Made by a program: the position numbers and the translations under genes. The notes under the pieces were generated by a model. The model had not been told where the DNA came from, ran no database searches, and saw only the letters and a list, made by a program, of their open reading frames with translations. DNA of 64,000 bases from Bacteroidetes bacterium HGW-Bacteroidetes-3. GTDB lineage: Bacteria > Bacteroidota > Bacteroidia > Flavobacteriales > Flavobacteriaceae. Below, in pieces: positions 21,630-41,689 of the stretch (position 1 is its first letter; every line of letters begins with the position of its first letter). The stretch is taken from the NCBI GenBank assembly GCA_002842505.1, contig PHDE01000001.1, positions 3,683 to 67,682 on the forward strand, written 5' to 3'.

Positions 21630-22520
21630 TTAGTAATTAACCGCCACAACTTCGTTAATTTTTCCGGGAATAAGTTGTTTCAACATATTTTCAATCCCGT
21701 TTTTTAGCGTTATTGTTGATGAAGGACAACCGCTGCAAGCGCCTTGCAATATAACATTCACAGTTTTTGAAGATTTTTCATAGGACTGAAACAAAATATT
21801 TCCGCCATCTGCGGCAACTGCAGGTTTAATATATTCCTCTAAAATATCAATAATTTGTTTGGAAACATCGTCAAGTTCAATATCAGGCATATAAACTTCT
21901 GAAACTTTTTGATGTATGGCAGTTTCCAAAGCGATTGTTTTTCCATCAGCAATATATTGTTTGATAAAACTTCTTATTTCAATAGTGATTTCATTCCATT
22001 CAACAGTGTCATTTTTAGTGACTGAAACATAATTTTCTGAAATAAATACTTCTTTCGCATAAGGAAAATTAAACAATTCAATAGCTAAAGGCGCATTTTC
22101 AGCTTCTTCCCTATTTTTGAATTCCAAATCATTTTCCACCAATTTAATGTTGGCGACAAACTTTAAAACGGATGGATTTGGCGTTGACTCCGCATACACT
22201 TCAACCGGAATTTTTTTCGGGGCAATTTCTTCTGAAATCAAAACGCCGCCGTTGTTAAGGTAGTTTTCTATTTGTTCTTTAACTTCTTCTTGTACATCGC
22301 TCCATTCCACAATAGAAAATCGCTCAAGCGCAATAAAATTTGCAGAAATATATACTCGTTTTACAAATGGCAAATAAAATAATTGCTGTGCCAAAGGGGA
22401 GTTTTTAGCTTCATCAATATTATTATATTGGTGACTTCCGCTTGTTAAAATATCGTTTGAAGTAAACTTAAGTATCGTTGGTATATTTGTTTTTTCTATG
22501 TTAAGCGTTCTGTTTTTCAT
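21630..22520 (-). CDS. NfuA/NifU-family Fe-S carrier with two N-terminal scaffold domains
   Basis: Two T-PN/T-NP-x-x-L-KF scaffold repeats, [19 protein letters not shown]. Confidence 0.9.
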
Positions 22521-22714
22521 CTGTTTAAATTTTATTTTTTATTGGTACAGCTGCTGCCTGCCTTCCGGCAGATAAATTCGCCATTAATCATTCCTTCCTG
22601 TATCAAAATTTGTTATGCTCGTTTCATCTGTTTAAATTTTATTTTTTATTGGTACAGCTGCAGTTCGCCATTAATCATTCCTTCCTGTATCAAAATTTGT
22701 TATGCTCGTTTCAT
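22515..22714 (-). repeat. Two tandem copies (107 and 87 bp) of a start-codon-embedded element
   Basis: TTTCAT at 22515, 22622 and 22709 delimits the units; 45 nt are identical to the copy at 41596-41689. Confidence 0.9.
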
Positions 22715-22769
22715 TTTTTTAGTTTGTGCAAAAATACATAAAACATCCTTTATGTACTTGTTTAAAAAT

Positions 22770-22799
22770 AAAAAAACGCCTCAAAGCCTGAGACGTTTA
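22770..22799 (-). terminator. Probable terminator of the FadL-like gene
   Basis: AAACGCCTCA / TGAGACGTTT arms with one mismatch, preceded by an A-run on the + strand. Confidence 0.55.
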
Positions 22800-22820
22800 A
22801 TTTATGCTTTTTATTGTTAT

Positions 22821-40917: not shown

Positions 40918-41601
40918 TCACAAATAGCGCTTTATTTCAATTAAATTAGTGACCGATTTAATATTTTCGGAAACAGGCTGTGCATTAAAATTACAGAAAA
41001 TAACATCAAATCCTGCATCCTTGGCGCCCATAATATCGGCTTCCCAGCTATCGCCAATCATCACCGATTCAGCAGAAGTCGCTTTTGTTTGGGACAAGGC
41101 ATATTCAAAAATAATTGGATTCGGTTTTTTAACGCCGGCATCTTCCGAAGTAATTATTTTGTCAAAATATTTGCTTAATCCTGAGTTTTCCATTTTTTTA
41201 TACTGAACTTCATTAAATCCGTTGGTGATTATATGCAGTTTATAATTTACATACAAATGCTCCAAAATTTCATGAGTTCCTTCAAAAAGTTGATTATTGT
41301 GTGGCAAAACATTGATATAATCTACCGACAAACTTTCCAAAAGCTGTAAGTTTACAGTTTGTTTTATTTTTACAAAAGTATCTTTTAACCTGCCTAAACG
41401 AAGTTCTTCTTTGGTTATTTTTTCTTCGCGGTATAATTTCCAATACTGCTCATTAATTCCCCTGTAATAATTCAAAAACTTTTGGACATCAACTTTTACC
41501 TCATGTTTTTTAAAAATAGTCTCAAAAGCGATGTCAGAATTTGTTTCGAAATCCCACAAAGTGTGGTCCAAATCGAAAAATATATGCTTAATAATTTTCA
41601 T
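40918..41601 (-). CDS. yjjG: YjjG-family HAD pyrimidine nucleotidase
   Basis: FFDLDHTLWDF, IITNG, KKPNP, MIGDSWEAD. Confidence 0.9.
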   Translation of the reverse strand: MKIIKHIFFDLDHTLWDFETNSDIAFETIFKKHEVKVDVQKFLNYYRGINEQYWKLYREEKITKEELRLGRLKDTFVKIKQTVNLQLLESLSVDYINVLPHNNQLFEGTHEILEHLYVNYKLHIITNGFNEVQYKKMENSGLSKYFDKIITSEDAGVKKPNPIIFEYALSQTKATSAESVMIGDSWEADIMGAKDAGFDVIFCNFNAQPVSENIKSVTNLIEIKRYL

Positions 41602-41689
41602 CTGTTTATATTTTATTTTTTAGCGGTAACAGCTGCTGTTCGCTATTAATCATTCCTTCCTGTATCAAAATTTGTTATGCTCGTTTCAT
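41596..41689 (-). repeat. Third copy (88 bp) of the start-codon-embedded element
   Basis: Flanked by TTTCAT at 41596 and 41684; aligned by eye with 22622-22714. Confidence 0.9.

Follow-up and report, generated by a model that had tools for sequence, protein, structure and literature searches.

Neisseria REP2 and the Correia (NEMIS), ERIC and RUP elements are short repeats without genes, found just before ORFs; they are transcribed together with these and may serve as a source of leader or ribosome-binding sequence. Correia elements have terminal inverted repeats and a TA duplication, and among the members of this group without Correia-type ends we know of none that targets the start codon. 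The start-codon element described here resembles these repeats in being short, gene-less, dispersed and placed directly upstream of ORFs. It is unlike them in that it lacks terminal inverted repeats, lies exactly on the ATG, is strictly oriented with the gene, regenerates an ATGAAA hexamer and belongs to another phylum.

With the REP/REPIN-RAYT and IS200/IS605 elements, the start-codon element shares a hairpin-based, strand-specific organization, a short specific target and ends without inverted repeats. IS608 has a 4-nt non-canonical internal 'guide', by which the target and the two cleavage sites are recognised. By contrast, the putative guide of the start-codon element spans 9-10 nt and is complementary to the joined ends in Watson-Crick fashion, and there is one complex hairpin only. 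Unlike REP-RAYT and IS200/IS605 elements, it is not flanked by any cognate Y1 gene, and Y1 is absent from some element-rich genomes.

The integron attC site, the attP(+) of CTX phage and the Xer-exploiting IMEX have in common a pseudo-duplex core on a folded strand, a conserved mismatch and a variable terminal hairpin. Like attC and attP(+), the start-codon element has a core paired with an internal complement around a conserved mismatch (as judged from covariation and from the excess of G-U over A-C pairs given below), a variable terminal hairpin and a fixed orientation, and its target core is regenerated, leading to head-to-tail arrays (21 junctions in this genome; two to three or more copies at yjjG in relatives). 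Unlike attC and dif, its core is ATGAAA and not GTTRRRY or dif, and it occupies approximately 100 dispersed chromosomal sites instead of one platform. Also unlike attC and attP(+), it carries no gene, and no tyrosine recombinase is linked to it; enzymes of this kind (IntI, XerCD) are ubiquitous in the phylum.

Three further comparisons are worth making. Pneumococcal BOX is likewise modular, with hairpin modules in varying number between conserved 5' and 3' ones, but has neither a start-codon target nor a regenerated hexamer. The Rickettsia palindromic elements are, similarly, selfish repeats built so that the interrupted gene keeps working; they lie in-frame inside ORFs and are translated, whereas the start-codon element lies before the ORF and would stop upstream frames and restart translation. 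Finally, unlike a classical MITE derived from a DDE transposon, the start-codon element has no terminal inverted repeats, and no autonomous partner was found, a weak negative in a metagenome-assembled genome (MAG). A literature search by topic and by sequence strings returned no description of the element, within an incomplete coverage that makes an earlier description possible. The family, which in kind belongs to the small non-autonomous bacterial repeats, is apparently undescribed so far.

The yjjG-like locus and the other copies in the window

The window is a stretch of 64,000 nucleotides from a Lutibacter MAG (3.55 Mb, 271 contigs, 34.9% G+C, contamination 3.95%). The features discussed below are the following:

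41689..41602, minus strand: element copy C, 88 nt, which opens with ATGAAACGAGC and closes with ATAAACAG, within the R1 match 41596-41689
41684..41689, minus strand: left ATGAAA, the former start hexamer of the gene, after a native A-rich leader, as judged from empty orthologous sites
41642..41683, minus strand: 5' hairpin (P1 plus inner hairpin), bracketed by CGA...GA, with phylum-wide covariation
41629..41639, minus strand: guide-equivalent segment ACAGCAGCTGT, the canonical form of which is R-TT-N-CAT-nnn elsewhere
41602..41621, minus strand: A-rich tail plus AAACAG, kept in nearly all copies
41601..41596, minus strand: right ATGAAA, the working start codon and Lys codon of the HAD gene
41601..40918, minus strand: host gene for a HAD-superfamily hydrolase (yjjG-like), 227 aa, Pfam HAD_2 and Hydrolase
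22628..22714, minus strand: copy A, 87 nt, first of the tandem pair before the nfuA-like gene
22521..22627, minus strand: copy B, 107 nt, with an extra CTGCCGGAAGGCAG hairpin module, abutting the ATGAAA start of the NfuA-like ORF
22520..21630, minus strand: NfuA-like ORF, Pfam Nfu_N and NifU

The full 88-nt unit of copy C is ATGAAACGAGCATAACAAATTTTGATACAGGAAGGAATGATTAATAGCGAACAGCAGCTGTTACCGCTAAAAAATAAAATATAAACAG, and its layout over 41602..41689 of the minus strand is ATGAAA-CGA-GC..GC-GA-ACAGCAGCTGT-TACCGCT-A-rich tail-AAACAG. The original prediction had described an 88-bp copy, oriented with the gene and bounded by ATGAAA at both ends, and this agrees with our reading in coordinates and letters. 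It had also held that the 5' 45 nt are identical to those of the nfuA-like tandem pair 19 kb away. Indeed, this core has three exact matches in the window (41645-41689, 22583-22627 and 22670-22714, all on the minus strand) and no others, with 0 expected by chance from shuffled sequences. R1, a covariance model built from 33 diverse copies, none of which comes from Lutibacter, recognises copy C at 41596-41689(-) with 45.8 bits (E = 2.4e-5) and also finds 22622-22714(-). No terminal inverted repeats join the ends at 41689 and 41602, where only internal palindromes and AT-runs in the flanks were seen, and the consensus of the other copies is likewise without them.

R1 gives one more, weak match in the window at 49170-49220 (-), with 19.2 bits and E = 0.42. 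It reads AGGAAATGA..AATTACATTTGAC..ACAGATGGAG, has the canonical guide and junction motifs without the P1 hairpin, falls within the span of a giant membrane-protein gene, and may be a chance match or a relic.

The ORF downstream of copy C matches HAD_2 (1.8e-26) and Hydrolase (1.7e-24). Since the Pfam profile begins at residue 4-7, the ATG at 41601 is the true N-terminus of the HAD protein; the name yjjG, assigned at family level, is plausible. The left ATGAAA of copy C now begins a mini-ORF, MKRA-stop. The A-rich tail together with AAACAG would represent a replacement translation-initiation leader brought by the element, the A-richness of the tail resembling that of native Bacteroidota start regions. 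Inside the unit, CAGCTGT is complementary to the 3' ACAGATG except for one mismatch, and there is a local palindrome AACAGC/GCTGTT too.

Two further functions were considered for the element and set aside. A promoter is suggested by AAATTTTG, which fits 7/8 of the Bacteroidota -7 box (TAnnTTTG, which goes with a -33 TTG), but no properly spaced -33 TTG was found by eye. Conserved micro-ORFs (MKRA-stop, MINSEQQLLPLKNKI-stop) are contradicted by a C insertion that shifts the frame in many copies and by the ATG-AAA-TGA of most other taxa.

The 3' half of copy C does differ from that of the nfuA copies. It had been described as drifted, but the cause is variation between sub-families and modules, not random drift: it holds a guide-like segment and exchangeable hairpin modules, and the apparent drift follows from the derived state of the Lutibacter lineage, in which TT-N and CAT-nnn have been replaced (see below). 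The proposal that the 5' half is a functional core fared similarly. A core is supported, but what is conserved throughout the phylum is a covarying hairpin and not a sequence.

Copies and target sites in the Lutibacter genome

A search of the whole MAG with the 5' module (nhmmer) yielded 170 copies, and 139 of them are complete. Their sizes form classes of 87/88, 98/99 and 107+ nt. The 98/99-nt class carries the TCCCGAAttTTCGGGA hairpin, which is found almost solely within the element, while the 107+ nt class has one to three CCTGCCGGCAGG-type hairpins. Head-to-tail arrays account for 21 internal junctions or members, leaving 118 array-terminal copies. Many contigs terminate within a copy, which indicates that the repeat breaks the assembly. 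Truncation is rare (4 solo tails versus 126 complete copies), and a retroposon-like origin, with an A-rich tail and 5' truncation, is thereby ruled out.

Some additional observations concern the internal modules and the assembly. Many copies hold one to three palindromic CCTGCCGGCAGG units, sometimes with GCAGG runs, in their middle (22521-22627 (-) in the window; C209:8198, C193:6191 and C146:30907 elsewhere), and a few such units occur outside the element as well (C21:285, C227:4489, C239:13094). These units may represent another very small hairpin, mobile or prone to slippage, that lands in the centre of the element. At C92:31369-31607, a copy is broken after GGCGAAC by another tandem repeat of ~70 nt with a GTGCTCGTCTGCGACGAGTAC hairpin, and the contig ends inside it. 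MutS fragments 90% identical to each other lie on two contigs (C144:8-1264 and C258:33240-34496), which, together with the contamination of 3.95%, suggests strain heterogeneity in the MAG.

ATGAAA directly follows the 3' end in 127/139 complete copies and stands on both sides in 116/139. When these flanks are compared with a fixed-length target-site duplication, it should be kept in mind that empty sites have one hexamer and that in 21 copies the left and right hexamers are unlike each other. The left hexamers decay (ATAAAA, ACGAAA, TTGAAA), while the right ones remain ATGAAA, as is expected if only the right hexamer still serves as a start codon. The upstream flanks are unrelated host sequences. 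Across the genome they carry the A-rich -13..-10 signature and the composition of native start regions; these left flanks are the original leaders of the genes.

Directly before an ORF of at least 50 aa at the right ATG we found 88 of the 118 array-terminal copies (75%), and 85 of these ORFs have at least 100 aa. By our crude gene calls (ORFs of at least 90 aa; short genes and mis-called starts are undercounted), the MAG contains 5306 ATGAAA hexamers in coding sequence, 863 in intergenic regions and 686 at gene starts. Among the tolerated hexamers, 686/1549 (44%) would therefore be expected at starts, compared with the observed 75% (binomial p = 4e-11). Before the left ATG, the open frame extends back for a median of 6 codons, the same as at native starts, and only three copies fall on the final codons of the gene preceding them.

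The remaining ~30 copies (~25%) lie at non-start ATGAAA or CTGAAA sites: some are 9-40 nt upstream of a real start, some are beside terminators or at the 3' ends of genes, and two arrays are at CTGAAA. Such a distribution indicates that targeting follows sequence, not translation. Thus, of the two options raised in the original prediction, sequence- or translation-start-directed targeting, the former holds, the target being the hexamer ATGAAA, and the latter has to be given up. Formally, the non-start copies also go against that prediction's expectation that no further copies would be found outside start contexts, though starts are still occupied in 75% of cases versus the 44% expected.

The excess at starts beyond what the hexamer and purifying selection provide could reflect extra target context, a benefit to the host or undercounted starts. 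An alternative would be that targeting senses translation initiation or the context of start regions in addition to the hexamer: 75-86% of copies are at true starts versus 44% among tolerated sites, and 81% of copies have a purine at position -1 of the left flank, versus 50% in the background. However, the copies located 9-40 nt before starts, by terminators, at gene 3' ends and at CTGAAA speak against it, the ORF-based background undercounts short genes and mis-called starts, and selection against antisense or terminator-proximal insertions could give the same excess. Overall, we consider such sensing improbable and retain the hexamer as the target. Functional bias among the genes that bear the element was not found. 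A bias towards signal peptides was ruled out, with signal-like N-termini in 52% of element-bearing genes versus 59% of other Met-Lys genes.

The two CTGAAA loci (C224:23119-22919, and C108:15841 joined to C106:16108) are not at gene starts. In both, a long copy is followed by a short copy flanked by CTGAAA, and the CAGCTGT guide matches ACAGCTG perfectly. These loci give the best hint that the flanking hexamer might be copied from the target, with the guide reading it. On the other hand, some copies with a left ATGAAA are followed by GTGAAA or TTGAAA, and these do not favour target duplication. The hexamer found on each side after insertion would then be either duplicated from the target or regenerated by the element. 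Joint retargeting of guide and target within Lutibacter was dropped as a claim: all four CTG junctions have CAGCTGT, yet they represent two loci, which is too few. In our genome and among the loci of other taxa examined, there were no variant families combining another hexamer with a matching guide.

Orthologous sites, distribution and folded structure

Orthologues of the HAD gene are present in 37/41 genomes of the genus, and we fetched them from 30 Lutibacter genomes to compare the site. Five close relatives are empty: AAAATAA(T/G)ATAA is followed immediately by ATGAAACA, with nothing between. Our genome and four others have one copy at the same point, and further genomes have two, or three or more. 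The net difference between filled and empty sites is one unit plus one ATGAAA. The occupants also differ in sub-family: our genome and G009 carry AGCGAACAGCAGCTGTTACCGCT, whereas G017 and G012 carry GGCGACTGCATCTGTACCAAT. In the gene tree, the clade of our copy otherwise consists of four empty members, and the other clade is filled but holds a well-supported empty pair. Such a topology indicates that the yjjG site was invaded more than once, or was cleanly vacated. The original prediction of an independent insertion at yjjG is therefore borne out, the sites of sister Lutibacter species being empty or occupied by other copy numbers and sub-families. Movement of the element is thus inferred from presence and absence between species.

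Within Lutibacter, a DNA search detected the element in 37/63 genomes, with a very uneven load: ~22 genomes have at least dozens to more than 100 copies, ~15 have a few, and the rest have none. In the other Flavobacteriaceae, 25/200 genera were positive, at 73-81% identity. Among the matches listed from a pattern scan of public genomes are Tenacibaculum, Arenibacter, Maribacter, Aquimarina, Gelidibacter, Kordia and Muricauda; Marinilabiliales (Carboxylicivirga, Saccharicrinis, Prolixibacteraceae), Chitinophagales, Vicingaceae and Ohtaekwangia are also among the matches listed. R1 found the family in 30/401 sampled Bacteroidota genomes (18/180 genera), including other orders and classes. At the loci from the pattern scan, 98/114 terminal copies stand directly before an ORF of at least 60 aa at the right ATG, versus 24.5% of all ATGAAA at these loci. 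At the old start, most non-Lutibacter copies read ATG-AAA-TGA, which means that a ribosome initiating there would stop at once.

The same housekeeping genes carry the element at their start in distant taxa, namely those for the PduO-type adenosyltransferase (MKIYTKTGDKG), DapB (MKIALLGYGKMG) and NAD-dependent epimerases (MKKILITGGAGFIG), as seen when C195, C200, C146:6490 and C183 of our genome are set against loci L107, L091, L116, L070, L006 and L094 of others. This points to hot-spot targets or very old insertions.

Throughout the phylum, the 5' part of the element has the layout ATGAAA - Y-GA - GCnnn ... variable hairpin(s) ... n'n'n'GC - GA - R, and the 3' part continues as TT-N-CAT-n1n2n3 - ~25 A-rich nt - n3'n2'n1', followed by ATGAAA. 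The Y-R pair is UA in 23 cases, CG in 8 and UG in 2, and is never unpaired. The P1 pairs covary (CG19/AU10 and AU18/UA9). In the controls, 0/500 column shuffles attained the observed score, and slid alignments collapsed. Alignment A1 was selected by a pattern that fixes both hexamers and most of the guide, and the covariation evidence is limited to P1, the Y-R pair and the right helix as scored on model-collected copies (A2), in which the right-hand helix was not imposed as a pair. In that set, the base after CAT and position -1 of the right ATG form CG 10, AU 9, GC 8, UA 1 and UG 1, i.e., 29/31 are paired. This covariation indicates that the internal segment is complementary to the head-to-tail junction n'n'n'-ATG-A-AA-Y.

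In minimum free energy folds (RNA parameters), the guide holds the left AAY beside the right n'n'n'AUG in 44/64 copies. There, the left AAY stacks on tandem G-A pairs and P1, and the always-mismatched N lies between the two helices. In the left helix, G-U pairs outnumber A-C pairs 26 to 9, which suggests that the sense strand folds; in the right helix the two counts are close (10 versus 7).

The Lutibacter lineage is a derived form of the family, with a C-A mismatch at the Y-R pair and CAG or CTG in place of TT-N. Its commonest sub-family, which is also the most uniform one (98 nt, with the TCCCGAAttTTCGGGA hairpin), has lost the CAT-nnn guide and has another hairpin instead. Thus, the guide is not indispensable in cis.

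Probable mode of spread and its consequences

Overall, we believe it to be very probable that the start-codon element is a non-autonomous, orientation-specific mobile repeat of 87 to ~130 nt that inserts at ATGAAA. Such a conclusion brings together the hexamer target, the hexamer on both sides, the fixed orientation, the arrays, the presence and absence in relatives, and the covarying fold with its junction-complementary guide. ATGAAA is the commonest gene start in these AT-rich genomes. The element would bring stops in all frames as well as a new A-rich leader and start context, and owing to these an insertion at a start codon would neither break the gene nor prevent its translation. Selection would purge insertions at ATGAAA sites within genes; such purging, together with hexamer specificity, might account for the association with start codons.

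The guide would probably present the ends of the element and check the target hexamer for a recombinase supplied in trans, which would act on a folded single strand, by analogy with attC, CTX attP(+) and the IS608 guides. No transposase or other enzyme linked to the element was found. A long, autonomous version was not found either, every 5' module having a 3' module within 254 nt except in copies at contig ends and in the C92:31369 copy with the nested repeat. A search of the MAG for repeated transposase ORFs (long copies, repeated ORFs, self-BLAST) returned only paralogous genes, in an assembly type that can lose IS copies.

One could go further and speculate that R-UU-N-CAU-nnn is a true guide or splint, that the target is read by nucleic-acid pairing with strand exchange in ATG^AAA, and that the system is reprogrammable through changes in the guide and even removable from mRNA. 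The segment would pair with nnn-ATG on the right and with the left hexamer's 3' half, which brings the two ends together around the conserved mismatch (hexamer position 4). If strands were exchanged inside ATG^AAA, the unit would be cut out exactly, and the reverse reaction would insert it at any ATGAAA; with the same geometry in RNA, the element might be removed like a tiny intron and the native start restored. We regard this extended scheme as unlikely.

A different interpretation would give the element a chiefly regulatory role in the host: it would be a cis-acting RNA that switches translation from within the 5' UTR and sets the expression of a dispersed regulon, its CAU-nnn pairing with the start codon or being held elsewhere, and mobility would be secondary. 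A conserved covarying structure, a start codon within a 6-9 bp helix, the excess of G-U over A-C in the sense strand and the location of the element between native leader and ORF, presumably inside the transcript, would all suit such a switch, as would its presence at the PduO-type adenosyltransferase, DapB and NAD-epimerase genes of distant taxa. However, the same gene is filled or empty in sister species, with copies ranging from 0 to 3 or more, and the 170 copies stand before unrelated genes without functional bias. Moreover, ~25% of the copies are at non-start sites, left hexamers decay, and the dominant Lutibacter sub-family is without the start-pairing segment. Nor did any family of Rfam 15 match the element, with the gathering score as threshold for the window, E of 10 for the nfuA copies (22400-22800) and E of 1 for eight loci of other taxa. 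All this makes a primarily regulatory role quite doubtful.

Equally doubtful is the possibility that the repeat is of the REP/REPIN or IS200/IS605 type and is moved by a Y1 HUH transposase (RAYT/TnpA). Its hairpins, strand specificity, short target and lack of terminal inverted repeats would be in line with single-strand 'peel and paste', and PF01797 genes are found in 19/22 element-rich Lutibacter genomes versus 12/41 others. However, this correlation is confounded by phylogeny, and PF01797 is near-ubiquitous in the phylum (291/401 genomes). Furthermore, the three RAYT-like genes of this genome are flanked by other hairpin families (GTCCCnnnnGGGAC, AGCCCACGG..CCGTGGGCT, CAACGGATTTCAATCCGTTG) and not by this element. 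Among the genomes rich in the element, G353 (at least 9 copies) has 0 PF01797 matches, and G626 and G501 (at least 9-10 copies) are outside the 291 positives. As a requirement, Y1/RAYT is ruled out by these Y1-free genomes and by the other repeats flanking the RAYT genes.

The RAYT-like Y1 genes (~150-170 aa, with an HxH motif) are located outside the window at C215:1-1240, C55:20650-21990 and C72:3710-5050. Their flanking hairpins are, in contig order, GTCCCnnnnGGGAC / GTGCCTTTAGGTAC, then AGCCCACGGTTTAAACCGTGGGCT, then CAACGGATTTCAATCCGTTG. These three loci are classical REP-RAYT arrangements, unrelated to the start-codon element.

Returning to the mobile repeat that inserts at ATGAAA, we would like to comment on what it means for its hosts. 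Start codons would be a safe harbour for a selfish element that brings its own replacement leader, which represents a different mode of coexistence between repeat and host. The family explains many of the 'leaders' and 'micro-ORF cassettes' of similar appearance that precede unrelated genes in Bacteroidota, as well as the tendency of MAG assemblies of these organisms to break at gene starts. For ~12% of the Met-Lys genes in the genome studied here, the 5' UTR is second-hand, and their expression could be retuned by it. Finally, if the guide model were true, the start-codon element would represent a new sequence-programmed insertion system.
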